Source: Bacteroidales bacterium
Lineage (GTDB): Bacteria; Bacteroidota; Bacteroidia; Bacteroidales; WCHB1-69
Reading direction: 5' to 3'
DNA length: 64,000 nt
NCBI GenBank assembly: GCA_017962275.1
Contig: JAGCVQ010000073.1
Span: 4,543 to 68,542, forward strand
Part shown: positions 1,947 to 63,785 of the stretch, one piece after another
Numbering within the stretch: position 1 is the stretch's first letter
How the letters are laid out: each line of letters starts with the position of its first letter
Translations under genes and position numbers: made by a program
The notes under the pieces: generated by a model
Told to the model about the DNA's origin: nothing
What the model saw: the letters and a program-made list of their open reading frames with translations, nothing else
The model's database searches: none

Positions 1947-3548
1947 ATGGAGATGAAAAGAACATTATGGATTGTTTTCGCCTTGATGATGGGCGTGACA
2001 CTGCAGGCGCAGAGTGTTGCGGATTATGAATCGGACGGCATGGAGTGCACTTCCATCACGGTGGGGAAGAAGGCTTCTGCCGATGGATCGGTGATGACTT
2101 CGCATACGGACGACAGCCATCGTTCGCGCACGAACATTTACGTGACGCCCGAGCAGGACTACGAACCCGGTGCCACGCAGACGCTTTACAAGCGCGAGTG
2201 GGCAAAGAAGCAGCAGCCCGGTCAGATGTTGCGCTATGATAACATTCCCGTGGGTGAAATCCCGCAGGTAGAGCACACCTACCAGTTCCTCAACACCGCT
2301 TATCCCTGCGTGAACGAGGCTCAGTTGGCCATCGGCGAATCGACTTTCGGCGGACGTCCCGAACTGAAGTCCGACAGCGGTCTCATTGATTGCCAGCGGC
2401 TCTGCATGCTGCTGCTGCAACGCTGCTGTACGGCCCGCGAAGCTATCGAAACTGCCGGCGTGCTGCTCAAGAAATACGGCTGGATTGACGCAGGTGAGTG
2501 CCTGACCATCGCCGACAAGGATGAGGTGTGGCATCTGGAGATCCTCGGTCCCGGCAGGGGCAAGTTAGGCGCGGTATGGGCGGCACAGCGCGTGCCCGAC
2601 GATCATGTGGCTGTCAATGCCAACGCCTCCACCATCCGCGAAATCAACCTCAAGGACAAGGATTACTTCATGGCCTCCGACAATGTCTATTCGCTGGCCC
2701 GCGATAACGGCTGGTGGGATGGCAAATCGACCTTCCGCTTCGCATACGCATACGCACCGCAAACCCGTACGTCGATGGCATGCCGCCGTCGCGAGTGGCG
2801 CGTCTTCGATCTCGTCGCCCCCTCCCTCCACCTCGACCCCAACGCCGAAAACTATCCTTTCTCTGTGAAACCCGACACGCTCGTCACCCTCGAAAAGATG
2901 ATGAGCATTTTCAGAGATTTCTATGAAGGCACCCCCTACGACATGCGTAAAACGCTGACCGTCACCGATAAAGACGGCAAGACCGTCATCTCCCCGATGG
3001 CCAATCCGTTCATGAAGCTCGACGAGCTGAAGTTGCACCGCATCAACGGAGGCTGGAATGAGCGCGGTGAACGCAGTATCGCTGTCCATTTTACCGTCTA
3101 TGCCACCATCATTCAATGCCGCAACTGGCTGCCCGATGAGGTCGGTGCCCTTTGCTGGTTTGCCCTCGACAATGTGGCTTCCTCCATCTATGTGCCTATC
3201 TATGCCAACGTTACGGATCTCCCGTCCACCTATAAAACGGATGGGCGCCTCACGGGATTCAGCAGGGAGTCCGCTTGGTGGGGCTTCAACCGTGTGGGCA
3301 CGATCGCCGCACAGCGTTGGGGCGACATGCACGTGACGGTGGATAAGACATGGCAGCCCTTGCAGAAAGAGTTCATCAAGGAACACTATGTCATCGAACA
3401 AGAGGCGATGGAGCTGATCAAGCAAGATCGTTATGAGGAGGCTGTACAGGTGCTCACCAACTTCACCGACATTTGCGGCAACGAGGCTGTGGAACGCGCC
3501 TGGAAGCTCGGCGACGAACTCTGGACAACCTACGACGGCCAATGGTAA
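1947..3548 (+). CDS. C69-family dipeptidase (secreted)
   Basis: Signal peptide MEMKRTLWIVFALMMGVTLQAQ, then the Cys-nucleophile context GMECTSITVGKKASADGSVMTSHTDD typical of C69 dipeptidases. The track start at 1929 is TTG; I moved it to the first ATG, 23 nt after a -7 box. Confidence 0.85.
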   Translation: MEMKRTLWIVFALMMGVTLQAQSVADYESDGMECTSITVGKKASADGSVMTSHTDDSHRSRTNIYVTPEQDYEPGATQTLYKREWAKKQQPGQMLRYDNIPVGEIPQVEHTYQFLNTAYPCVNEAQLAIGESTFGGRPELKSDSGLIDCQRLCMLLLQRCCTAREAIETAGVLLKKYGWIDAGECLTIADKDEVWHLEILGPGRGKLGAVWAAQRVPDDHVAVNANASTIREINLKDKDYFMASDNVYSLARDNGWWDGKSTFRFAYAYAPQTRTSMACRRREWRVFDLVAPSLHLDPNAENYPFSVKPDTLVTLEKMMSIFRDFYEGTPYDMRKTLTVTDKDGKTVISPMANPFMKLDELKLHRINGGWNERGERSIAVHFTVYATIIQCRNWLPDEVGALCWFALDNVASSIYVPIYANVTDLPSTYKTDGRLTGFSRESAWWGFNRVGTIAAQRWGDMHVTVDKTWQPLQKEFIKEHYVIEQEAMELIKQDRYEEAVQVLTNFTDICGNEAVERAWKLGDELWTTYDGQW

Positions 3549-3590
3549 CCCCATAACCCTATAACCGTGTAACCCTTTAACCTTCAACCC
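3545..3590. repeat. Degenerate 7-8-nt tandem array, GGTTA/TAACC family
   Basis: GTAACCCC ATAACCCT ATAACCGT GTAACCCT TTAACCT TCAACCC. It fills the stop-to-start spacer between the C69 and thioesterase genes and is the reverse complement of the family at 30766-30925. Confidence 0.85.
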
Positions 3591-9113: not shown

Positions 9114-9141
9114 GTAGAGACGCAAAATTTTGCGTCTCTAC
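9114..9141. repeat. Perfect 28-nt palindrome GTAGAGACGCAAAATTTTGCGTCTCTAC (copy 1)
   Basis: Read directly from the sequence. It lies between convergent genes and could act as a bidirectional hairpin or terminator, although no U-tract follows it. Confidence 0.9.
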
Positions 9142-13571: not shown

Positions 13572-15441
13572 TCGTTTCATCATCACTCACCCGCATCTCA
13601 CATCGCCCGCAATCGAACACCAACCGGAAACGGTGCTTGCCGGAAATGAGATACAACGGGTCTTTCGGAGAGTTCGCCTCGGGGGGAAGTTTCTTGCACC
13701 AACCCAACTCGTAACGAAGACAATATTTGCAGGTCATCAACGACTTGCCGGCGTAATCTTCGGTTTTGTCCAAACCGTACTCGATTTCCTTGGCCCCGAA
13801 ATCCTCATACACCTTCCGATGCGCCTCGTTGGTGATGTTCCGCAGATAATCGGCACGCTGGAAGAGAGGTTCGGGATGGTATTGTAACGGCGTGTCTTTG
13901 GGGTGGAAATGCGCGAGACGGGTGGCTGTTAACTGTTCCACCAACTTGGTTTTCAGTTCGTTGATATATCCGGCACGCAAAAAAGCCGTGCATTTGGGAA
14001 TGGTGACGGTGCGTGCCTCGAACGAGGTGCCGCCTAACTTCGACAACGCCGTACGCAATGTCTCCGCCATCTTCTCGGGCTGCTGCGCGGCCGTCAACGC
14101 CACATTGTCCTCCACAATCGCGGTGCATCCGTCCTCATCGGTCATGGTAACCCGAACACGATCAGTGAGCTCTTCGAATAGAATATCCACGGCAATCTTC
14201 CGTTCAGCGGTCTTTCCACTCAAAATCTTCTCGAATTGCTTGTCAATATTTCGGTACAACGCCACTTTGGTGAATTTGGACAGCGGCTTCTGCGGAATGA
14301 TGCGATTGCCTTCCACTCCGTTGACCAAAAAGCCCTCTAATTCGCCCTGCTCGTTGATAAAACACAGACCATCGCCGTTGGATATTGGTTGTTGGCTGTT
14401 AGCTTTCGGCTTTTGGCTATTAGCTATTGGCTGTTGGCTGTTGCCTAATCCCTCAAACCAATACTTCCCGCCACGCTGCCTTAGATACCCGACAAATTGT
14501 CCCATCGCCTTCGGTGTATCGAACGAGGTCATCTTTTCGCGCTGACCTTCAATGAAGTAGGAGGTGAAGTTGCGGTTGAAGGTCTTGTGCAGGTCGGGAG
14601 TAAAGAAGAAACGGGTGGTGCCGCTGCCAACCCGTTGATAATCGGGACGTTCTTCCAATATACGGTCGATGAGCTGACGGTAGTAGGCGGTGACGTTCTT
14701 GACGTAACTCTCGTTTTTCAGCCGGCCCTCGACCTTGAAAGAGCAAATACCCGCGTTCATCATCTCTTCAATGTGATCGGCGCGGCACATATCCTTCAAC
14801 GAGAGCAGGTGCTTGTTCCGGATAAGAGTCTTACCGTCAGCATCTTGCAAGTCGAAGCGGGTTCGGCAGATCTGAGCGCAGGCCCCTCGGTTGCCACTCC
14901 GTCCTGTCATCATCCGGCTGATGTAACACTGGCCGCTGTAGCAGACGCACAATGCGCCATGCACGAACGCTTCCAATTCGATATCGGTCTGTTTATGAAT
15001 CTGTTGTGCAGTCTGTAAATCCATTTCACGGGCCAGTACCGCACGGGTGAAACCTAACTTTTCGAGAAATTGGATGCGTTCCAACGAATGGTTGTGGCAT
15101 TGCGTGCTCGCGTGCAAGGCGATGGGCGGGATATCAAGCGTCAACAGTCCCAGATCCTGAACCAACACGGCATCGACACCGATGTTATAGAGTTCCCAAA
15201 GCAGCTTCCGGGCGGACTCTAACTCGTTGTCGTACAGCAAGGTGTTGACGGTGACATGCACTTTCGAGCCGTAGAGGTGGGCATGTTTCACCAGGGCTTC
15301 GATGTCCTGCAGGGAATTGCCGACCGCCTGACGCGCCCCGAACGCAGGCGCACCCGTATAGACAGCATCCGCGCCGTGGTTGATGGCGGTGATTCCGCAG
15401 GCCAAATCCTTGGCAGGCAACAAAAGCTCGATCTTACTCAT
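13558..15441 (-). CDS. Peptidase U32 family protein (collagenase-like/RlhA-TrhP type) carrying an internal low-complexity insertion
   Basis: IELLLPAKDLACGITAINHGADAVYTGAPAFGARQ and the long conserved body are U32-like. The track start at 15447 is TTG; the first ATG is at 15441. The insert is GNSQQPIANSQKPKANSQQPISNG. Confidence 0.88.
   Translation of the reverse strand: MSKIELLLPAKDLACGITAINHGADAVYTGAPAFGARQAVGNSLQDIEALVKHAHLYGSKVHVTVNTLLYDNELESARKLLWELYNIGVDAVLVQDLGLLTLDIPPIALHASTQCHNHSLERIQFLEKLGFTRAVLAREMDLQTAQQIHKQTDIELEAFVHGALCVCYSGQCYISRMMTGRSGNRGACAQICRTRFDLQDADGKTLIRNKHLLSLKDMCRADHIEEMMNAGICSFKVEGRLKNESYVKNVTAYYRQLIDRILEERPDYQRVGSGTTRFFFTPDLHKTFNRNFTSYFIEGQREKMTSFDTPKAMGQFVGYLRQRGGKYWFEGLGNSQQPIANSQKPKANSQQPISNGDGLCFINEQGELEGFLVNGVEGNRIIPQKPLSKFTKVALYRNIDKQFEKILSGKTAERKIAVDILFEELTDRVRVTMTDEDGCTAIVEDNVALTAAQQPEKMAETLRTALSKLGGTSFEARTVTIPKCTAFLRAGYINELKTKLVEQLTATRLAHFHPKDTPLQYHPEPLFQRADYLRNITNEAHRKVYEDFGAKEIEYGLDKTEDYAGKSLMTCKYCLRYELGWCKKLPPEANSPKDPLYLISGKHRFRLVFDCGRCEMRVSDDETITIL
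14384..14446. repeat. Nine in-frame heptamers inside the U32 peptidase CDS
   Basis: ATTGGTT GTTGGCT GTTAGCT TTCGGCT TTTGGCT ATTAGCT ATTGGCT GTTGGCT GTTGCCT = 63 nt. They encode NSQQPIANSQKPKANSQQPIS on the minus strand. Confidence 0.9.
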
Positions 15442-16654
15442 CGGCAAAGCGTTTCGCCTTCAGTGGGAACTGTTCGGCCAGTTCGCCGGAGTAATAAAAG
15501 TCATTGCAAATCACCCCGAAGGTGTAAATCTCATCGTGGACGGTGATGTGCGAGCCGCCGCACTGTGGGTCGGGACCCGGTTTGGAGGCTGCGAACCCGA
15601 GGTTGAAAAGGGTGAACAGAATGTCGGGACGATTGGTGATGTCGTATCCTGAACGCTTCCATTGCAGCATGGTCTGATGCAGGATACAACCCGTGTAAAT
15701 GTATGAGTACAAATGATTTCGGTAATTCGTGAGCCGGTTGAACCGCTCAGATTGGTGGTCAGCGGTCTGGAAATCGAGGATGTGCTCGTAGGTTTTGCCC
15801 ATGTAGAAAATGGAGGCGGTGTCGGTGAGGTTGCGTTCCACCTGCATGGCCGTGAAATCCTTGATGCCGTTGACCCCGAGCGAGAACTGCGACTGCACCG
15901 AAAGTACCTTCATCGGGCCGAGGTAGCGTTTGTACATTTCGCGTTTGCTGTTGAAAAGCCGTACCTGTTCTCCTACGAGACAGCCCACGATGAGGCGGGG
16001 CTCAACCCCGGTGAGACGGGCGGCTTCATAAATCACGGCGGAATCTTTCAAGATGGCAGCCTTCAACGCCGGCCATGCCGAATCGTTCATCCACGGAACC
16101 ACATTTCCTTCAAACGGAGACATCTTATTGGTTTTCAATAGATTGTTGATATCGTCCACCATCTTCTGATAGGCCGTGGCGTGTTCATCGTCCTGCATGT
16201 ACATGTTGGCGGCATAGAGCATCTCGCTGATGGCCGTGGGACGGTCACTGTATTGCGCGGCATTGAAGATCAGGTCGGCATTCTTCGGATAGAAGTGCCG
16301 CAAAACGGACAGCGAGCGGTAATCCGTGAGAATCTGCTCTTGGCTGTCTATCGAATCCGACTGCGATGTATATTTCTGTCTTTCAGATAGGTAGCGATTG
16401 TTTTGGTCGGCGCCGCCCTTGTTGTTGGTGAAGCCGAGTTCGAAAAACGCCCATGCGCCGAGGATGCCCGCACCCACCAGCGCAAACAGATGTAACACAA
16501 TCAGATAGAATTTGCTGTGTCCCTTCAGCCGTTTCCATGATTTCCACAAACTCCGCTTCTTGCGGAGTTTTTTCGAAGTTTGTTGGGACGTATTGCCATT
16601 GGATTGTAGAGACGGTGCATGCACCGTCTCTACAGAGGAATTTGTCTCTTCCAT
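15434..16654 (-). CDS. Hypothetical membrane-anchored protein
   Basis: 406 aa. A basic stretch is followed by one TM helix (FYLIVLHLFALVGAGILGAWAFF) and a large soluble domain. An 8-nt overlap (ATGAGTAA) joins it to the U32 gene. Confidence 0.6.
   Translation of the reverse strand: MEETNSSVETVHAPSLQSNGNTSQQTSKKLRKKRSLWKSWKRLKGHSKFYLIVLHLFALVGAGILGAWAFFELGFTNNKGGADQNNRYLSERQKYTSQSDSIDSQEQILTDYRSLSVLRHFYPKNADLIFNAAQYSDRPTAISEMLYAANMYMQDDEHATAYQKMVDDINNLLKTNKMSPFEGNVVPWMNDSAWPALKAAILKDSAVIYEAARLTGVEPRLIVGCLVGEQVRLFNSKREMYKRYLGPMKVLSVQSQFSLGVNGIKDFTAMQVERNLTDTASIFYMGKTYEHILDFQTADHQSERFNRLTNYRNHLYSYIYTGCILHQTMLQWKRSGYDITNRPDILFTLFNLGFAASKPGPDPQCGGSHITVHDEIYTFGVICNDFYYSGELAEQFPLKAKRFADE
16605..16634. 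repeat. Perfect 30-nt palindrome TGTAGAGACGGTGCATGCACCGTCTCTACA (variant of the GTAGAGACG family)
   Basis: Same outer arms GTAGAGACG/CGTCTCTAC with a different core. It lies within codons 8-17 (VETVHAPSLQ) of ORF 15434..16654. Confidence 0.9.
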
Positions 16655-16718
16655 TTACGTCTTACGTTTTAAATCTTACGTCAAAATCTAACGTCTAACG
16701 TCCTACGTCTCACGTCTA
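16655..16718. repeat. Heptamer array, ACGTCTC family
   Basis: TTACGTC TTACGTT TTAAATC TTACGTC AAAATC TAACGTC TAACGTC CTACGTC TCACGTC. It fills the spacer from the rnfA stop to the next start codon. Confidence 0.85.
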
Positions 16719-17309: not shown

Positions 17310-17340
17310 TTTTTTCTGTTATTTCGTTTGTTGTTTAATA

Positions 17341-17396
17341 GTGATCAGTGAACAGTGATCAGTGAACAGTGATTTGTGATTGGTAAGTAGAAATCG
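17341..17396. repeat. Heptamer array, CAGTGAA/GTGATCA family
   Basis: GTGATCA GTGAACA GTGATCA GTGAACA GTGATTT GTGATTG GTAAGTA GAAATCG, inside the rnfE-rnfA spacer. Confidence 0.85.
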
Positions 17397-17422: not shown

Positions 17423-17457
17423 AACAATTATCCATTATCCATTATCAATTCTCACAA
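17423..17457. repeat. Heptamer array, ATCCATT family
   Basis: AACAATT ATCCATT ATCCATT ATCAATT CTCACAA. It overlaps the rnfE stop codon and last codons. Confidence 0.8.
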
Positions 17458-19680: not shown

Positions 19681-19710
19681 CTCTTTTTTTGAATACGTTG
19701 TGTTTTTAAA

Positions 19711-19801
19711 AGACGTAAGACGTGAGACGTAGGACTTAAGATGTTTGGCTAAGGAATTCGCCCTCTCCAATCCAACGTCTCACGTCTTAGATCTTACATC
19801 A
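19711..19801. repeat. Inverted pair of ACGTCT-family heptamer arrays
   Basis: Left arm: AGACGTA AGACGTG AGACGTA GGACTTA AGATGTT (19711-19745). Right arm: AACGTCT CACGTCT TAGATCT TACATCA (19774-19801). A 28-nt spacer separates them. The pair lies between the T9SS gene stop and the rnfD promoter. Confidence 0.85.
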
Positions 19802-24598: not shown

Positions 24599-24605
24599 CA
24601 TTTTT

Positions 24606-24640
24606 AATTGATAATGGATAATTGATAATGGATAATTGTT
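24606..24640. repeat. Heptamer array, ATCCATT family (reverse orientation), left arm of an inverted pair
   Basis: AATTGAT AATGGAT AATTGAT AATGGAT AATTGTT. Confidence 0.85.
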
Positions 24641-24738: not shown

Positions 24739-24773
24739 AATAATTATCCATTATCCATTCTCAATTATCCATT
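24739..24773. repeat. Heptamer array, ATCCATT family, right arm of an inverted pair
   Basis: AATAATT ATCCATT ATCCATT CTCAATT ATCCATT. Confidence 0.85.
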
Positions 24774-24780
24774 AAATTCG

Positions 24781-29512: not shown

Positions 29513-29540
29513 GTAGGGACGTAAAATTTTGCGTCTCTAC
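29513..29540. repeat. 28-nt palindrome family, copy 2 (GTAGGGACGTAAAATTTTGCGTCTCTAC)
   Basis: It carries two transitions in the left arm relative to the perfect palindrome. Both still allow G-U pairing in a plus-strand RNA. It lies 20 nt after the ogt stop. Confidence 0.85.
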
Positions 29541-29565: not shown

Positions 29566-29620
29566 CTCCGGTCCAACTCCGGTCCAACTCCGGTGTAACT
29601 CCTGTGTAAGTCCTGTGTGG
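29566..29620. repeat. 11-nt tandem array with stepwise drift
   Basis: CTCCGGTCCAA CTCCGGTCCAA CTCCGGTGTAA CTCCTGTGTAA GTCCTGTGTGG. It abuts the hemW stop. Confidence 0.88.
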
Positions 29621-30756: not shown

Positions 30757-30765
30757 TGTTCTAAT

Positions 30766-30925
30766 GGTTATTGGTTATAGGTTATTGGTTATTGAAGCTT
30801 AGAGTTTAGGGTTAAAGGGTTAAAGGGTTATAGGGTTAAGGGTTACACGGTTACATGGTTACACGGTTATATGGTTACACGGTTACATGGTTACATGGTT
30901 AGGGGTTAGAGTTTGGGTTTGGGGG
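30766..30925. repeat. About 160-nt degenerate 7-8-nt tandem array, GGTTA family
   Basis: GGTTATT GGTTATA GGTTATT GGTTATT ... GGGTTAAA GGGTTAAA GGGTTATA GGGTTAA GGGTTACAC GGTTACAT GGTTACAC GGTTATAT GGTTACAC GGTTACAT GGTTACAT GGTTAGGG GTTAGA GTTTGG GTTTGGGGG. It spans the spacer and the last codons of 30906..32444. Confidence 0.9.
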
Positions 30926-32447: not shown

Positions 32448-34091
32448 CTATTTTTTCGGGGAGAGGATTTCGCGGTAGCGGCTCGGATTGAGCAGCACGC
32501 TCTTGGCGGCTTCGATGTCGCGGTCGTGATGCAGGCTGTTGACGAGCTTGCCGGTGCTGAAGTAATAGCGCGAGACGATTTCCTGCGTGAGGGCGCGGGC
32601 GATTTCGGACTTCTGGGTGGTCAGTTCCTGCGTTTTGAGGTTTTCGATCTGCGACTTCAGCTGGTTGTAGGCGTTTTGGATGCCCGCGAACGAATGATCG
32701 TCTTCGGCAGCGGTTTTCAGCTCTTCCAGCTTTTTCTCGATTTCGGTCGTGTAATCGTACTTTTTCGCTTTGAGGAATTGCAGAAAATCGTTGTAGATGG
32801 CATCGTCCACGACAAAGTCCTCCGCCTTGGCGATGGTTTCGTGTTTCGCACGGTAGTCGTTGGCAAAGTCGAAGATGGCCTGATCCTCGATGAGCGCGGT
32901 CAGGATGTCGGGCACGTCCTCGTCCGCCACGGGTACGTCGGGTTCCACGCCGCCCTTGTCATAGACGGTGCGTCCGTTCTTGGTCTTATATGCAACAGCC
33001 AATGAATCAGGAATCTTGTAACCGCCCTTGGTGGTGTCGCGGTCGAAATACTCGATATTCTGCACGCAACGGCCGCTGGGAATGTAGTATTTCGACACGG
33101 TGACCTTCATGCTGGTGTTGTAATCCATGGGATAGACCTTCTGCACCAGACCCTTGCCGAAGGATTTCTTCCCGACGATGACGGCGCGGTCGAGGTCTTG
33201 CAGCGTGCCGGAGACGATTTCCGATGCCGAGGCACTGTGTTCGTTGACCAGCACCACGATGGGGATATCTGCGTCGGCCGCCTCATTGCGGGTGCTGTAA
33301 ATCCGGTTCATCTCCGCAATCTTGCCCTTCGTTTCCACTACCTTAACATCCTTGCCCACAAAGAGATCGATGATGTTGACCGCTTCGCCGAGGAGACCGC
33401 CGCCGTTGTCGCGCAGGTCGATGATGAGGTACTCCATGCCGTCCTCTTTGAGTTTCTTGAAGGCGTCATAGACTTCCTGTCCGGCGTTTTCGAGGAATTG
33501 GTTGAGCTTGATATAGCCCACTTTGTCGCCAAGAAGTCCGGACCAGGGGATGTTGGGTTGTTTCACCTTCTCGCGTTTCACCTTGAACGTCAGGTTCTTG
33601 CCGTCGGTCGGACGGAAAACATCCACGGTGTAAGTGCTTCCGGGCTGCCCGCGCATGGCGAGGATGAGGGCGTCAATGTCGCGGCTCTCGGACGATTGTC
33701 CATTGATTTTGAGGATGCGGTCGCCGACGCGCAGACCGGCCTTCGCGGAGGGACCTTCACCCACCATATCGATGATAACCGGCTGTTTGTCAATGACTTT
33801 CAGGGTGACATCCACATCGCCTGATTCACCAGCGTTCATCATGCGGTAAGTTTCGATTTCGCCCTCGTTGTAATAGACGGTGTAGGGGTCGAGGCTCAAC
33901 AGCATGGCCTTGATGGCGGTCTGGGTCAGTTCGCCGGGAGAAATCTCGTCGGCGTATTTGTCGTTCAGCTCGTTGAGCACGCTGATGAAAATATCGACAT
34001 TCTTGACGATTTCAAAGTCGTTTTGGGCGGAAATGTTGGTAAAAAGTCCGGTGATTGCGATGATAATTGCGGTTATTATGGTTTTTCTCAT
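32448..34091 (-). CDS. S41 C-terminal processing (tail-specific) peptidase
   Basis: PDZ region (GPSAKAGLRVGDRILKING) and the catalytic region VVLVNEHSASASEIVSGTLQDLDRAVIVGKKSFGKGLVQ. Confidence 0.9.
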   Translation of the reverse strand: MRKTIITAIIIAITGLFTNISAQNDFEIVKNVDIFISVLNELNDKYADEISPGELTQTAIKAMLLSLDPYTVYYNEGEIETYRMMNAGESGDVDVTLKVIDKQPVIIDMVGEGPSAKAGLRVGDRILKINGQSSESRDIDALILAMRGQPGSTYTVDVFRPTDGKNLTFKVKREKVKQPNIPWSGLLGDKVGYIKLNQFLENAGQEVYDAFKKLKEDGMEYLIIDLRDNGGGLLGEAVNIIDLFVGKDVKVVETKGKIAEMNRIYSTRNEAADADIPIVVLVNEHSASASEIVSGTLQDLDRAVIVGKKSFGKGLVQKVYPMDYNTSMKVTVSKYYIPSGRCVQNIEYFDRDTTKGGYKIPDSLAVAYKTKNGRTVYDKGGVEPDVPVADEDVPDILTALIEDQAIFDFANDYRAKHETIAKAEDFVVDDAIYNDFLQFLKAKKYDYTTEIEKKLEELKTAAEDDHSFAGIQNAYNQLKSQIENLKTQELTTQKSEIARALTQEIVSRYYFSTGKLVNSLHHDRDIEAAKSVLLNPSRYREILSPKK

Positions 34092-34252
34092 AGTCGAAGT
34101 TCAAGGTTCAAAGTTCCAGGTTCAAAGTTCCAGGTTCAAGGTTCAAAGTTCAAGGTTCAAAGTTCAAGGTTCAAAGTTCAAGGTTCAAAGTTCAAGGTTC
34201 AAAGTTCATAAGTCCTAAGTCTCACGTCTCACGTCTCACGTCTCACGTCACC
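34092..34252. repeat. About 23 tandem heptamers, GTTCAAG family morphing into CGTCTCA family
   Basis: AGTCGAA GTTCAAG GTTCAAA GTTCCAG GTTCAAA GTTCCAG (GTTCAAG GTTCAAA)x5 GTTCATA AGTCCTA AGTCTCA CGTCTCA CGTCTCA CGTCTCA CGTCACC. The period is exactly 7, running from the stop at 34248 to the start at 34091. Confidence 0.95.
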
Positions 34253-35015
34253 CGTGCCGGCCTTTTTTCTTGCCGAAGTTGAAGGAAAGATAGCCGGTGA
34301 GGTAACATTTCTTGGCGGGGTTGAAGGCCATCTGCTGGATGAACGGGAAGACCATCTGGACTTGCAGACCGATTTCGAGGGCGGTGAGTTTGTAGTCGTT
34401 CTTGGCGAAGTCGAAAACGAGTCCGGTTTTGGCGTAGAATCCGGGCCGGAAGATGGTCTGCGAGATGCCGTTGTAGAGCCGGGCGCCGCCGAGGATGTTG
34501 TTGAGGTTGTGCTTCTCGGGGTCGTAGCGCACGATTTCGGAGAAGCCGGTATTGTAGTTGAGCACCTCCACGTAGTTGGGGATGCCGATGCCGAGGGCGG
34601 GGCCCGCCGACAGGGTGTAGCGGATCTGCACGCCGCCCCAGTAGGGTTTCAGGTGGAGGGTGCGCTGGTAGCCGTAGCCGGCCTGCAGGAAGAACAGCGA
34701 GTAGAGCTGGCCGTAGCGGATGGGGCGCACGTTTTCGTAGAAGGCGTTGATGGAGCGGATGGATTTGGGGTGCTTGTTGACCATGAACTGCACCTCCCAG
34801 AAGTGTTTGTTGTAGAGGTCGGGGGTGCGTCCGTGTTGGAAGCCGCCGCCGAGACCTTCCGTATGTGCGATAATCTGGAAGTTCCACTCCTTGTCGGTCA
34901 CATCGTGGTAGTACTCCCCGACGTTCTGGGCCATCGACAAACAGCAAGCGACCGCCAACAGCAATGTCAGCGGCGCTCTCTTGAGGATGAGCCGACCCAA
35001 GCCCGTCGTTCGCAT
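34248..35015 (-). CDS. Hypothetical outer-membrane-type protein
   Basis: Signal-like LLLAVACCLSMAQ and a beta-barrel-like alternating pattern. Two overlapping ORFs in other frames have shadow-type composition. Confidence 0.6.
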   Translation of the reverse strand: MRTTGLGRLILKRAPLTLLLAVACCLSMAQNVGEYYHDVTDKEWNFQIIAHTEGLGGGFQHGRTPDLYNKHFWEVQFMVNKHPKSIRSINAFYENVRPIRYGQLYSLFFLQAGYGYQRTLHLKPYWGGVQIRYTLSAGPALGIGIPNYVEVLNYNTGFSEIVRYDPEKHNLNNILGGARLYNGISQTIFRPGFYAKTGLVFDFAKNDYKLTALEIGLQVQMVFPFIQQMAFNPAKKCYLTGYLSFNFGKKKGRHG

Positions 35016-35193: not shown

Positions 35194-35201
35194 CAAAGAT
35201 A
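35194..35201 (-). promoter_or_regulatory. -7 box TAtcTTTG for the small lipoprotein gene
   Basis: 26 nt before the start at 35168. Confidence 0.5.
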
Positions 35202-48626: not shown

Positions 48627-49857
48627 AAATCGGTTCGTAACTGTCGAAAATCGCGTTCTCGTAGTTGTCGAACGGGGTGTGGTAAAAGGGGAAGGCGTCG
48701 CCGCTTTCGTTCTCGAAAAGGATGCTCGGCACGCCTTTCTCAGTGAACGGATAGTGGTCGCTGTTACCGGCTAACTCCCCGCGGTTCAATCCTTTAAAGT
48801 ATTTCTTTTCCGTGTTGATTTTGTCGAATGTCGTGAAGCCTCGGTCGGAGTTGGTTTCTACGTATTGCATGGGGTTGTTGTCACCGATCATGTCGATGTT
48901 GATGAGGAACTTGATTTGCTCTAACGGAACGGTCGGATGCGCCACGTACCACTCCGAGCCGCGCAAGTTGGCATCCTCACCGGAGAAGGAGATGAAGTAG
49001 ATGTCGTACTCGGGACGGTTCTGGGCGTAATAGGCCGCGAGCGTCACAATGGCGGCAGTGCCGGAAGCGTTGTCGTTGGCTCCGGCGTAGAACACCTTCT
49101 TGCCGAGGTTGCCGAGGTGGTCGTAGTGCGCCGTGAAGACGAAGCAGCTGTCGTGCCGCTTGCCCTCCACCTTGGCGATGACGTTGAAGAGTTCGTAGTT
49201 CTCCAGGAACTTGTTCTCAATGTTGACGGTGATGCTCTGCGCGTCCTTCGGGAAGTCGGTGGTGCACCAGATAACGGGCTTGCCCATGATCTTCTCTCCG
49301 TAAGCCTTATAGAATTTGAGATGCGGCTCCCAAGTCTGGATCATGCCGGCGTTGGTGCAGCCTTCCTTACCCCAAATCTTCTTGAAGTCTTGGTAATGGC
49401 GGTAAGAGAAAAAGAAGTCACACACCACGAAGCAGTCCTTGTACTCGGGTTTTGCGAGGTCGGCGAACATCTTCTCGGCATCGTAATTGTTCGTATCGAC
49501 GTAGTAGAGTTTGTAAGTGCCGCGCACGCCCGGCGAGTACTCGCGCATCGAGAATTCCACGCCCGGGGTCAGCTTGCGGCCATCGACGGACATCTCCATC
49601 TTGCCGGGAAAGGTGTTGATGTTGATGGTGAACGGCTGGCAGATAACCTCATCGACGCCCGCCTTCTTGTATTCCTTTGCCAAATACTTCCCCGCTTTGT
49701 TGGCACCGCCGTAGGCATAGCCGCGCCCTTGGTATTTCGCGGAAGTCAGCTCTTTGAGCACCTGTTTGTAATGCTCTAAATTCTGAGCCTGTAGGGACGA
49801 GGTGCACATCGTCTCTACCAACAAAAATGCCAATGCTATGATAGTCAGTTTTTTCAT
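48592..49857 (-). CDS. M28-family aminopeptidase (secreted)
   Basis: Signal peptide MKKLTIIALAFLLVETMCTSSLQAQ. FTAHYDHLG...GANDNASGTAAIVTLA...FISFSGEDANLRGS are the M28 metal-ligand motifs. The start is set 25 nt after a -7 box; the 655-aa track ORF is an upstream extension. Confidence 0.85.
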   Translation of the reverse strand: MKKLTIIALAFLLVETMCTSSLQAQNLEHYKQVLKELTSAKYQGRGYAYGGANKAGKYLAKEYKKAGVDEVICQPFTININTFPGKMEMSVDGRKLTPGVEFSMREYSPGVRGTYKLYYVDTNNYDAEKMFADLAKPEYKDCFVVCDFFFSYRHYQDFKKIWGKEGCTNAGMIQTWEPHLKFYKAYGEKIMGKPVIWCTTDFPKDAQSITVNIENKFLENYELFNVIAKVEGKRHDSCFVFTAHYDHLGNLGKKVFYAGANDNASGTAAIVTLAAYYAQNRPEYDIYFISFSGEDANLRGSEWYVAHPTVPLEQIKFLINIDMIGDNNPMQYVETNSDRGFTTFDKINTEKKYFKGLNRGELAGNSDHYPFTEKGVPSILFENESGDAFPFYHTPFDNYENAIFDSYEPIFRLVKDFVERY

Positions 49858-52987: not shown

Positions 52988-53097
52988 GAGTTAAGAGATA
53001 ATAGTTAATCGTTGATGGGGATAAGTCATAGTCTAAGTTATAAGTCAAAGTCATAGTCAAAGTCATAGTCAAGGTCATAGTCTATACTAACAACCAA
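52983..53097. repeat. Mixed 6-7-nt tandem array, GTCATA/GTCAAA family
   Basis: GTTAAGA GTTAAGA ... GTTAATC GTTGATG ... GTCATA GTCTAA GTTATAA GTCAAA GTCATA GTCAAA GTCATA GTCAAG GTCATA GTCTATA CTAACAA CCAACAA. It fills the stop-to-start spacer. Confidence 0.85.
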
Positions 53098-53639: not shown

Positions 53640-54692
53640 ATGAATCCCGTAACATCCCGACTTCTCAACCAGCAGCTTGTGGCGCCGCAGTTCAGTGATC
53701 CGGCGGAGGTAGTGAGCCATTTGGGCGCGATGCAGGCGCAGGAATACCGACTGATGCGGTGGGCGGTGGCGATGCGTACCCGCAAACCGTCGTTGTCGGC
53801 GTTCACGAAGGCATTCGACGACGGCCGTATCATTCGTATGCACCTCATGCGCGGCACATGGCAGTTGGTGGCCGCCGAGGACTACTGGTGGATGCTCGAA
53901 CTCTGTGCCCCCAAGGCCATCTCAGTCACCAAGGGGTGGATGCACAGCAACAAAATCGACATTCCCGAAAAGGAATACCTGAAAATCAGGGAGATACTGG
54001 CGCAAACCGCCGCCGACAAAGGGAGCGTGACGAAGGAGGATTTCGTGAACGCGCTGTCGGAAAAGGACATCACGATGGATGACCATCGGCTGTCGTATCA
54101 TATCCGCATGTGCGAGATGACGGGAACGCTTTGCAGCGGCAATCTGCAGCCGATGAAAGCGACCTACGCCCTCGCTTCCGAAAAGGTGAAACGGACGGAA
54201 CCCCTCGACCGCGACGAAGCTCTGATGCGCTTCACCCGAAAGTATTTTCAAAGCCGGCAGCCCGCCACATTGGAGGATTTCGTGTGGTGGTCGGGGCTGA
54301 ACATCAGCGACTGCCGAAGGGGAATTGAATTGTTGGGCGATTATCTACATGTAGAGACGCAAAATTTTGCGTCTCTACCACGCAGGGAATTCTATTTGAC
54401 CGACGACTGTCGCACGCGGGGCTTCCGCAAAGGACAATACCTGCTGATTCCGCCCTACGACGAGTACCTGATCGGTTACAAGAGTCGCGACATCGTGCTG
54501 CAGCCGGAGCATCAGCACCGCGCACACAACAACCGGGGCATCTTCCAGCCCATCATCGCCCACGACGGTCTCATCTGCGGCAACTGGGCACCTTTCAAGA
54601 AGGAATTCCAGGTGGAGTTTTTCCGCGAAGGACACAATGCGGAGGATGTGTTAGGTGCGTGGGAGGGGTATGCGCGGTTTCGAGACATGTAA
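53640..54692 (+). CDS. YcaQ/AlkZ-like winged-helix DNA glycosylase family protein (DUF1006), carrying an in-frame palindromic-element insertion
   Basis: LLNQQLVAPQFSDPAEVVSHLGAMQAQEY...RMHLMRGTWQLV is the YcaQ-family N-terminal pattern. Codons ...HVETQNFASLP... are encoded by the 28-nt palindrome at 54351-54378. Confidence 0.8.
   Translation: MNPVTSRLLNQQLVAPQFSDPAEVVSHLGAMQAQEYRLMRWAVAMRTRKPSLSAFTKAFDDGRIIRMHLMRGTWQLVAAEDYWWMLELCAPKAISVTKGWMHSNKIDIPEKEYLKIREILAQTAADKGSVTKEDFVNALSEKDITMDDHRLSYHIRMCEMTGTLCSGNLQPMKATYALASEKVKRTEPLDRDEALMRFTRKYFQSRQPATLEDFVWWSGLNISDCRRGIELLGDYLHVETQNFASLPRREFYLTDDCRTRGFRKGQYLLIPPYDEYLIGYKSRDIVLQPEHQHRAHNNRGIFQPIIAHDGLICGNWAPFKKEFQVEFFREGHNAEDVLGAWEGYARFRDM
54351..54378. 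repeat. Perfect 28-nt palindrome GTAGAGACGCAAAATTTTGCGTCTCTAC (copy 3), inside a CDS
   Basis: Identical to the copy at 9114-9141. It lies within the open reading frame of the YcaQ-like gene. Confidence 0.9.
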
Positions 54693-63730: not shown

Positions 63731-63785
63731 AGCCAACAGGGAATAGGCAAAAGGCAAAAGGCAATAGTCAAAGTTAAAGTTTAAA
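63731..63785. repeat. Heptamer array, AGGCAAT family
   Basis: AGCCAAC AGGGAAT AGGCAAA AGGCAAA AGGCAAT AGTCAAA GTTAAA GTTTAAA. It fills the spacer between the stop at 63725 and the start at 63789. Confidence 0.85.

Follow-up and report, generated by a model that had tools for sequence, protein, structure and literature searches.

The spacer between the S41 peptidase gene and the gene upstream of it, at positions 34092-34252 of the 64,000-nt stretch of Bacteroidales DNA analysed here (hereafter the window), is a further example of the known class of heptanucleotide simple repeats. It is probably a slippage-born, hypervariable heptanucleotide VNTR of the LSSR type that has no sequence-specific function. 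Its length beyond chance, its whole-unit polymorphism between strains and its non-coding location are the properties by which LSSR and VNTR loci are recognised. In itself the tract reveals no new regulatory system; what is new here are a series of strain alleles, the seeding of arrays at stop codons, their apparent link to the arms of a dispersed palindrome and the limits of the clade in which they occur.

The 161 bases of the tract are exactly 23 heptamers with zero indels. The description given in the first-pass annotation, of a spacer that is wholly period-7 from the S41 start codon to the upstream stop, holds in full, including the order of the units: AGTCGAA, GTTCAAG, GTTCAAA, GTTCCAG, GTTCAAA, GTTCCAG, (GTTCAAG GTTCAAA)x5, GTTCATA, AGTCCTA, AGTCTCA, CGTCTCA x3, CGTCACC. 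The parts of the tract are the following.

34092..34252, minus strand: whole tract, 23 in-register heptamers, occupying the intercistronic space between the S41 ATG and the upstream stop codon
34092..34098, minus strand: degenerate edge unit AGTCGAA (sense TTCGACT), adjoining the S41 start codon
34099..34210, minus strand: 16 units of the GTTCAAR/GTTCCAG family (sense YTTGAAC/CTGGAAC), including the perfect (GTTCAAG GTTCAAA)x5 core
34211..34224, minus strand: two transitional units, AGTCCTA and AGTCTCA, kept in every allele spanning that end (L014-L018)
34225..34245, minus strand: CGTCTCA x3 (sense TGAGACG), one unit fewer in L016 and L018
34246..34252, minus strand: last unit CGTCACC, containing the TGA stop of the upstream gene at 34248-34250

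Since this TGA lies inside the last unit, the array begins at the stop codon. At a lag of 7, 124 of 154 positions match (81%), and 84% match at a lag of 14, whereas lags other than multiples of 7 give 4-35%; TRF scored the two halves of the tract at 157 and 62. The bases TC at columns 3-4 are constant across all 23 units. Neighbouring units had been described as 0-3 substitutions apart; the actual range is 0-4, the first pair (AGTCGAA/GTTCAAG) differing at four positions. The units are contiguous without spacers between the repeats, hence the tract is not a CRISPR, as had been stated. Its non-coding nature was likewise confirmed by stops in all three sense frames and by alleles that differ by 21 and 70 nt. 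Antisense coding by the plus-strand ORF 33904-34218, which is open through the array, was ruled out because the 70-nt allele difference is not a multiple of 3. A Rho-utilisation site is unsupported, the sense strand having no excess of C (32) over G (36).

The tract lies within a minus-strand operon with the following features.

32448..34091, minus strand: S41 peptidase gene, 547 aa, PDZ and Peptidase_S41 domains, directly downstream of the tract, ATG at 34091
34248..35015, minus strand: upstream 255-aa gene, no Pfam match, same-strand neighbour of S41 in seven sister species
35194..35201, minus strand: Bacteroidetes-type -7 box TATCTTTG, the nearest on this strand and the putative promoter of the operon
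30757..30905, minus strand: next array-filled spacer of the same operon, between Wzy_C and the radical-SAM gene, TAACC-type period 8, then period 7

Starting from TATCTTTG, the gene order is a small lipoprotein-like ORF, the 255-aa gene, the tract, S41, Wzy_C, the array-filled spacer and a radical-SAM/HemN-like gene; S41 and Wzy_C are separated by 3 nt, and the arrays at 30757..30905 begin at the TAA stop of Wzy_C. The Bacteroidetes -7 motif TAnnTTTG was found 25-54 nt before the start codon in those genes of the window that head transcription units, and it is missing in front of S41 and the other genes of the window that follow an array in a co-directional spacer. No TAnnTTTG occurs in or beside the tract; because the nearest one is about 1.1 kb upstream, the tract appears to be an intercistronic stretch of a polycistronic mRNA. 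A scan for sigma-70-type promoters at the tract gave weak consensus matches only, and neither a terminator-like site nor an inverted repeat was found in it. Rfam yielded zero gathering-score matches across the window, and around the tract even a cut-off of E <= 1 gave nothing.

Strains that encode an identical S41 protein carry the tract with 13, 20 or 23 units. L014, with 99.99% identity to the window, shares the 23-unit form, 20 units are present in L017, and L016 and L018, which come from two samples, have 13 units in the same structure. The allele sizes differ by 21 and 70 nt, always in whole heptamers, and the order of the internal variants differs as well. These unit counts were taken from short-read assemblies, in which the exact counts are uncertain for the longest alleles. 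The segment 34099..34210 is the most variable part; at the other end, the alleles hold four or three copies in the GACGTGA sense register at 34225..34245, the smaller number in L016 and L018. The flanks of the divergent strains L016-L020 are 96.4-99.3% identical, and 98.3-99.3% in all segments but one, hence the unit-number polymorphism bears out the proposed proneness to slippage. Other spacers behave similarly: that after Wzy_C differs between strains by 24 and 40 nt, i.e. by multiples of 8, and the rnfE-rnfA spacer varies between two and three copies of GGATAAT and by a 7-nt insertion. The spacer after rnfA has been swapped wholesale in the sister strains L144 and L145, where a GTTTAAG array and a palindromic GTAGAGACGG..CCGTCTC hairpin stand in place of the ACGTCT-N array of the window.

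The tract is one of many such arrays. With TRF (score >=30, >=3 copies), 18 arrays of period 7 or 8 were found in the window, the tract being counted as two, which corresponds to a density of about 1 per 3.5 kb, whereas the mean was 0.16 and the highest count 1 when the window was simulated 200 times with an order-3 Markov model. Period 7 accounts for 16 of the arrays and period 8 for two; periods 4, 5, 9 and 10 gave none. Sixteen of the 18 are intergenic, located within the 10.2% of the window that a crude ORF map leaves as intergenic, and the combined span of all 18 (774 bp) is equivalent to about 12% of the intergenic bases by that map. Enrichment over chance is thus established for the window. 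The first-pass annotation had counted at least 18 other arrays; many do exist, and TRF leaves 16 besides the tract plus about four that are weaker or of another period (9140, 19774, 29566 with period 11, and 53023 with period 6/12). They occur in tandem, convergent and divergent gene contexts, as had been noticed, and in non-coding DNA of every kind; some belong to housekeeping operons (Rnf), others precede promoters, and one even lies in a coding linker. The latter is the array at 14377, an in-frame 21-nt (7-aa) repeat in the linker of a U32 peptidase, while the second non-intergenic array, at 63734, sits only in a 93-aa ORF without Pfam match. The distance to the start codon is 0 nt for the tract and 0-1 nt for the arrays at 16655 and 38058. 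Several word families recur in the window, namely ACGTCT-N, GGATAAT, TAACC, CAGTGAA and AGGCAAA; such recurrence is not expected from purely random local seeding and in this respect speaks against the slippage reading.

Among the nine co-directional array-bearing spacers of the window, the array overlaps the upstream stop codon in seven and lies within 2 nt of it in the remaining two, and the same placement is seen in L002, L005, L006, L007 and L144. After Wzy_C, in the window as in L002, L005 and L007, the stop TAA and a following CC make up the first TAACC unit, with periods and registers that vary at this gene end: in L007 the unit CATTAAC comprises the last codon and the stop, and L002 reads TAACCGCA. 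After rnfA in L144 and L145, the letters GTT-TAA-G around the stop are the first GTTTAAG unit, and in L006 a TAG stop begins the repeat. Since the arrays start at upstream stop codons, 33 of 36 sense frames in the arrays contain a stop, compared with 17 of 36 antisense frames. Units that are free of stops are under-represented relative to letter-shuffled ones in the window (3 vs 5.9 expected) and also in 195 arrays from unrelated metagenome contigs (65 vs 90.6 expected). The simplest reading is that the spacers once measured a few nucleotides, that the only 7-nt duplications then tolerated were those including the stop codon, and that the arrays extended from there as far as the following start codon.

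Among public genomes, the nearest are uncultured rumen Bacteroidales MAGs with an S41 identity of 77-88%. In these, the orthologous S41 spacer is only 4-15 nt long (L003, L007), is an AT-rich stretch of about 70 nt without array (L001), holds a hairpin of the GTAGAGACG..CGTCTCTAC type (L002, L004, L005) or consists of a long array of unrelated units with periods 8 and 21 (L006). Because the seven sister species differ in this way, neither word nor length nor presence of the array is conserved at the S41 spacer. All sister species keep an A-rich leader before S41 (..GAAATTATG; ..AAATTATG), which in the window is replaced by the array adjoining the S41 ATG (a run to position -4 in the species comparison). 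To our knowledge, the phylum of these bacteria generally does without Shine-Dalgarno-led initiation. The overwriting of the leader, as seen in the sequence comparison, argues against selection for a good initiation context. TAACC-type arrays at the 3' end of Wzy_C are present in five of eight species, a persistence that could indicate constraint. Sister genomes with 77-88% identity contain 0-5 arrays per 10 kb, with zero arrays in the 10.6 kb of L003 (80% identity), and almost none were found in relatives at 59-62% S41 identity and in outgroups. Hence, the clade boundary separates most relatives at or above 77% S41 identity, which have arrays, from those at about 60%, in which they are nearly absent.

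One of the recurrent words leads to a dispersed palindrome, GTAGRGACG-N8-10-CGTCTCTAC, that has five copies in the window.

16607..16636, no strand assigned: palindrome copy, separated by about 20 nt from the array of ACGTCT-N units at 16655
9115, 29514, 49792 and 54352: the other palindrome copies
16655..16717, minus strand: ACGTCT-N array, filling the spacer after rnfA

The word CGTCTCA had been regarded as the unit of separate arrays at 16655, 19711 and 19774. Each of these contains only one exact copy; they are really made of ACGTCT-N variants, and the array at 19711 has the opposite orientation. The ACGTCT-N words coincide with the arms of the palindrome GTAGAGACG..CGTCTCTAC. In the S41 spacer of L002, the left arm of the hairpin is tandemly duplicated, and the GTGAGACG units of the window align to this arm. 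It is therefore likely that this one word family derives from palindrome arms, which offers a non-functional explanation for the recurrence of the same word. More generally, recurrent seeds, i.e. the context of stop codons, palindrome arms and the TTTGCC of the -7 box, may explain why words recur, as judged from a few loci. Two ACGTCT-N arrays in inverted orientation at 19710-19800 are predicted to fold into a hairpin (-42 kcal/mol, z = -5.7), with a U run behind it, just past a gene end, and the structure looks like a terminator.

The tract itself behaves differently from these inverted arrays. It had been described as not being a classical REP hairpin, and it has indeed no inverted repeat and a weak fold; the palindrome that marks REP/BIME elements is missing, although one word family of the tract matches the arm of the palindromes located elsewhere in the window. 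The minimum free energy of the sense RNA is -20.5 kcal/mol, that of shuffles -24.6 kcal/mol; its centroid structure is almost free of pairs, and the z scores of +1.4 (dinucleotide shuffles) and +4.4 (mononucleotide shuffles) mean that it folds more weakly than shuffled sequence. Among the 15 arrays compared, 34-88% of random heptamer arrays of equal composition were equally or more unstructured. Hence, weak folding is a by-product of direct repetition and not of selection, and a selected structure-free leader was ruled out, because random heptamer arrays fold as weakly.

The history of the tract might be reconstructed as follows. A short spacer in an operon for a small lipoprotein, the 255-aa protein, the S41 peptidase and Wzy_C would have been inflated by 7-nt tandem duplication that started from the sequence around the upstream stop codon. 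A palindromic hairpin of the GTAGAGACG type, which is found at the same spot in sister species, probably provided the seed with its 5' arm. Whole units of 7 or 14 nt would then be gained and lost by replication slippage, possibly associated with transcription, and point mutations in single units would be copied by later slippage, giving rise to the stepwise morphing of one word into the next and to the degenerate edges. Selection might set the borders only, in that the upstream reading frame and the S41 start codon must stay undisturbed, which would explain why the tract fills the gap exactly. The tract would be transcribed as a passive, weakly structured stretch with a stop triplet in every frame of the sense strand, and its sole likely effect would concern the distance and context between the two cistrons.

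Several functional explanations have to be weighed against this origin by slippage without sequence-specific function. The tract might act as an expression rheostat, i.e. a contingency locus in which the unit number tunes the translation or mRNA fate of the S41-Wzy_C envelope genes, an analogy that brings hmw1A of H. influenzae to mind. In the 5'-UTR of that gene, expression is inversely proportional to the number of ATCTTTC repeats and repeat changes need transcription (PMC12721329), so that a heptamer precedent is documented. The tract resembles it as a transcribed heptamer array of slippage-variable unit number directly before the start codon of an envelope-related gene pair, strains do differ in unit number, and overwriting the A-rich leader of the sister species could plausibly alter initiation. 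However, the hmw1A repeat is one arm of a long hairpin cleaved by RNase III and lies downstream of its own promoter (PMC12721329), whereas the spacer studied here has no promoter and no hmw-type 5'-UTR hairpin arm, its centroid being almost unpaired at z = +1.4. Moreover, it is one of many arrays in the genome, and because equivalent arrays are found in the Rnf operon, ahead of promoters, between convergent genes and within a coding linker, the occurrence of arrays is a genome-wide property and not specific for this locus. There are also sister species that manage without any array at the S41 spacer. Taken together, we regard a rheostat as unlikely. It appears improbable that a protein binds to every heptad, be it on DNA in the manner of ParB/omega or on RNA in the manner proposed for S1, Csp or CsrA. 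ParB/omega binds cooperatively to four or more contiguous heptads in parS of plasmid pSM19035 (PMC9499535), and binding of S1, Csp or CsrA to RNA has been proposed for TAACTGA repeats (PMC4679880). The units of parS are contiguous, 7 bp long, direct or inverted and upstream of genes like those of the tract, the word families recur in the window, and the two constant base positions in all 23 units would also fit bound sites. However, parS relies on one conserved word, one protein and a minimum of four repeats (PMC9499535), while the words found here are diverse and unconserved: the at least six unrelated word families of the window would need as many binders, the word changes between species and was replaced wholesale between strains at the rnfA spacer, the GGATAAT family is oriented inconsistently relative to transcription, and in viral contigs ACGTCT-N does not exceed the control words in frequency. 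The earlier proposals of protein-binding arrays or RNA-level insulators are thus not supported by a spacer that is unconserved in word, length and presence and by arrays that fold like random heptamer arrays.

It is even more doubtful that the tract is derived from a mobile or terminator element, a decayed palindromic, REP-like member that still insulates or processes the mRNA between cistrons. Such an origin would be in line with the five GTAGRGACG..CGTCTCTAC palindromes in the window, with the hairpins at the S41 spacer in L002, L004 and L005 and at the rnfA spacer in L144 and L145, with the strong fold and subsequent U run of the inverted ACGTCT-N arrays, and with hairpins whose arms are heptamer arrays, which are common in metagenome and viral contigs. 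However, the tract has no inverted partner, stable fold or terminator-like site, and 16 of its 23 units come from a word family other than that of the palindrome. An assembly or scaffolding artefact is hardly conceivable. It is true that L015 has a scaffold N gap and the contigs of L019 and L020 end inside the array, and that short reads have difficulty with the perfect 70-nt core. However, independent ENA and Logan assemblies of different samples contain the same tract with its flanks, the 13-unit allele, which at 86 nt is shorter than a typical 150-nt read, is identical in two samples, and the alleles differ in internal unit order and not in length alone.

The distribution of the words in public contigs is consistent with an arbitrary choice of word. 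In the metagenome, scanning for three ACGTCT-N units yielded at least 120 loci in contigs of 29-73% GC, and among the matches listed many contigs bear several other heptamer arrays or inverted pairs. When viral contigs were scanned for three tandem units with the seventh base free, ACGTCT-N was found at 9 loci, compared with 34, 46 and 30 loci for the control words ATCGCT-N, ACTTGA-N and TCGATA-N; the idea of ACGTCT-N as a special cross-phylum word was ruled out by these numbers. GTTCAA-N gave at least 120 viral loci; it is commoner because a hairpin family dispersed in some phage contigs has arms made of this word. Since Shine-Dalgarno-like AAGGAGG motifs stand beside the arrays in these contigs, the phage arrays are taken as convergence rather than homology with the tract, as far as the sequence context indicates. 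Every heptamer word scanned, controls included, forms arrays in tens of unrelated public contigs, and arrays of arbitrary heptamer words are thus widespread.

Heptameric repeats are known to be in excess in bacteria yet have been little studied (PMC4692102). As summarised in a later study, Mrazek surveyed prokaryotic genomes in 2007, in most of which heptanucleotides ranked first among the long simple repeats, and proposed polymerase slippage (via PMC4679880). According to the same summary, the LSSR class of Mrazek, Guo and Shah (2007) agrees with the arrays of the window in its head-to-tail units of 5-11 nt, length beyond chance, dominance of period 7, non-coding location of units that are not multiples of 3, and slippage as the proposed origin (via PMC4679880). 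In contrast to the survey as summarised there, the density here looks unusually high, there is no uniform dominant word, and Bacteroidales do not appear among the genomes listed as repeat-rich (via PMC4679880). The statement that no equivalent was known for Bacteroidota has to be corrected, because heptamer arrays were described in five Bacteroidetes, including the Bacteroidales species Paludibacter (PMC4679880). These are intergenic TAACTGA arrays of up to 43 copies, often just before start codons, that occur in Beggiatoaceae, cyanobacteria and the five Bacteroidetes (MacGregor 2015, PMC4679880), the author of which also made the above-mentioned proposal of RNA binding. Their spacers hold other heptamers, close relatives lack the array, and contigs break inside the repeats (PMC4679880), and the arrays reported here resemble them in all these respects as well as in intergenic position, proximity to start codons and stop-bearing units. 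Unlike the TAACTGA repeats (PMC4679880), the arrays of the window belong to many word families, begin at the upstream stop and fill the spacer. For the words TGAGACG, CGTCTCA and GTAGAGACG, no relevant paper turned up in the literature searched.

Provided that the window is typical, about one eighth of the intergenic DNA of this organism consists of heptamer and octamer arrays that outpace point mutation. Such arrays break short-read assemblies and can mislead ORF callers, and they offer very fine strain markers for rumen metagenomics. Stop-codon seeding and the palindrome-arm link show concretely how arrays are born, and the clade boundary gives a comparative route to the change in replication or repair that permits them. 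A more far-reaching reading, for which we see a rather small chance, is that a clade-specific regime of 7-8 nt duplication, seeded at stop codons and at the arms of dispersed palindromes, inflates operon spacers and that the resulting leaders, being weakly structured, frame-closed and strain-variable, set the expression of the downstream cistrons. If true, spacer length would be a fast-evolving, genome-wide expression dial and might provide a handle on why 7 nt is favoured in prokaryotic repeats.

The window arrays share with the cyanobacterial STRR repeats the intergenic position, the tandem heptanucleotide unit and the several word families per genome, while the host here is not cyanobacterial. 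The STRR words are CCCCAGT (STRR1), TTGGTCA (STRR2) and CAACAGT (STRR3). No tandem copies of these three words, and no tandem TAACTGA, exist within the window. Nearest to STRR comes the GTTGGCT array at 14377, the reverse-complement rotation of which, CAACAGC, is one mismatch from STRR3, and sister loci carry TAACTAC and TAACTGC units that are one mismatch from TAACTGA.

Heptamer arrays in the window can be arranged as inverted pairs, and the two ACGTCT-N arrays (seventh base free) at 19710-19800 pair over about 28 bp to give a hairpin (-42 kcal/mol, z = -5.7) that is followed by UUUUAAAAA. Because it lies directly after a gene with a CHU_C/T9SS domain, this hairpin is read as terminator-like, with the heptamer arrays as its arms. 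The elements discussed here are listed below.

Repeat elements in the window
19710-19800, minus strand: inverted ACGTCT-N arrays forming the hairpin
24605-24638 and 24743-24774: inverted GGATAAT/ATTATCC arrays on either side of a divergent promoter core
14377-14443, minus strand: GTTGGCT heptamer array within the U32 peptidase gene
30808-30901 and 3546-3582: period-8 arrays of AGGGTTAC / TAACCCTA
29566-29618: 11-mer CTCCGGTCCAA array, 4.8 copies, in a convergent intergenic spacer
53023-53084: 6/12-mer AAGTCATAGTCA array, about 5 copies, in an intergenic spacer, adjoining an AGTTAAG heptamer array
17340-17395, minus strand: sense heptads AATCACA AATCACT GTTCACT GATCACT between rnfE and rnfA
9115-9141, 16607-16636, 29514-29540, 49792-49818 and 54352-54378: dispersed palindrome GTAGRGACG-N8-10-CGTCTCTAC

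Each array of the second inverted pair (GGATAAT/ATTATCC) is situated immediately 5' of a TAnnTTTG -7 box, and the two are oriented alike with respect to their genes. The 191-nt divergent promoter region comprising these arrays also folds stably (-55 kcal/mol, z = -4.6), and the GGATAAT word was found again at position 17427 and in the sister-species contig L004.

Further elements were noted in other contigs.

Elements in other contigs
L264, L220, L204, L241, L268 and L203 (viral contigs, IMG/VR): dispersed hairpin family
L021:10507-11416, L113:3661-4723, L121:2810-6051 and L138:5440-6086 (metagenome contigs): very long heptamer arrays, 0.6-2.2 kb
L002:9275-9375, L005:7470-7580 and L007:9465-9570 (sister-species contigs): conserved non-coding stretch (TTTTTTTCTCCCCCATGTCACC ... 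GTTGAATCGATTCGGTAA.TAACGGAA)

The phage contigs contain as many as 10 of these hairpins per 12 kb, with arms composed of the heptamer arrays (GTTCAAR)n and (YTTGAAC)n; the hairpin at L220:7685-7775, for example, has a folding energy of -27.3 kcal/mol (z = -4.8). The word GTTCAAR is common to these arms and the tract in the S41 peptidase spacer, and in the phage contigs the arrays often adjoin a Shine-Dalgarno-like AAGGAGG motif of a nearby gene; these contigs with Shine-Dalgarno-like motifs are taken to be unrelated. The very long arrays consist of TGAGACG, ACGTAAG or GTGGGAC units, and their low-GC contigs (34-41%) may be eukaryotic. The conserved stretch is absent from the 64-kb window; in the three sister species it is located 3' of TAACTAC arrays and 5' of a cluster of three genes.

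The GTTGGCT array represents an in-frame 21-nt repeat translated into NSQQPIA / NSQKPKA / NSQQPIS; its unit contains no stop triplet on either strand, and the word family is also present in L001, L002 and L006 (sister species). It occupies the linker joining the Peptidase_U32 and DUF3656 domains. The period-8 arrays resemble eukaryotic telomere repeats (TTAGGG, TTTAGGG) and could cause false telomere or contamination flags when MAGs are screened.

For the dispersed palindrome we know of no name; the 24-nt core AGAGACGCAAAATTTTGCGTCTCT is identical in two of its five copies. The copies at 16607, 49792 and 54352 overlap crude ORF calls and lie within them, therefore these ORFs, or the starts assigned to them, may be incorrect.

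The heptads between rnfE and rnfA look similar to WATCACW, the consensus heptad of the omega repressor of pSM19035, which is probably a coincidence. Within the same spacer, the A run immediately 5' of the rnfA start codon (17310-17320; L141-L145) varies among strains between A7, A8 and A9, and is a second type of slippage polymorphism.
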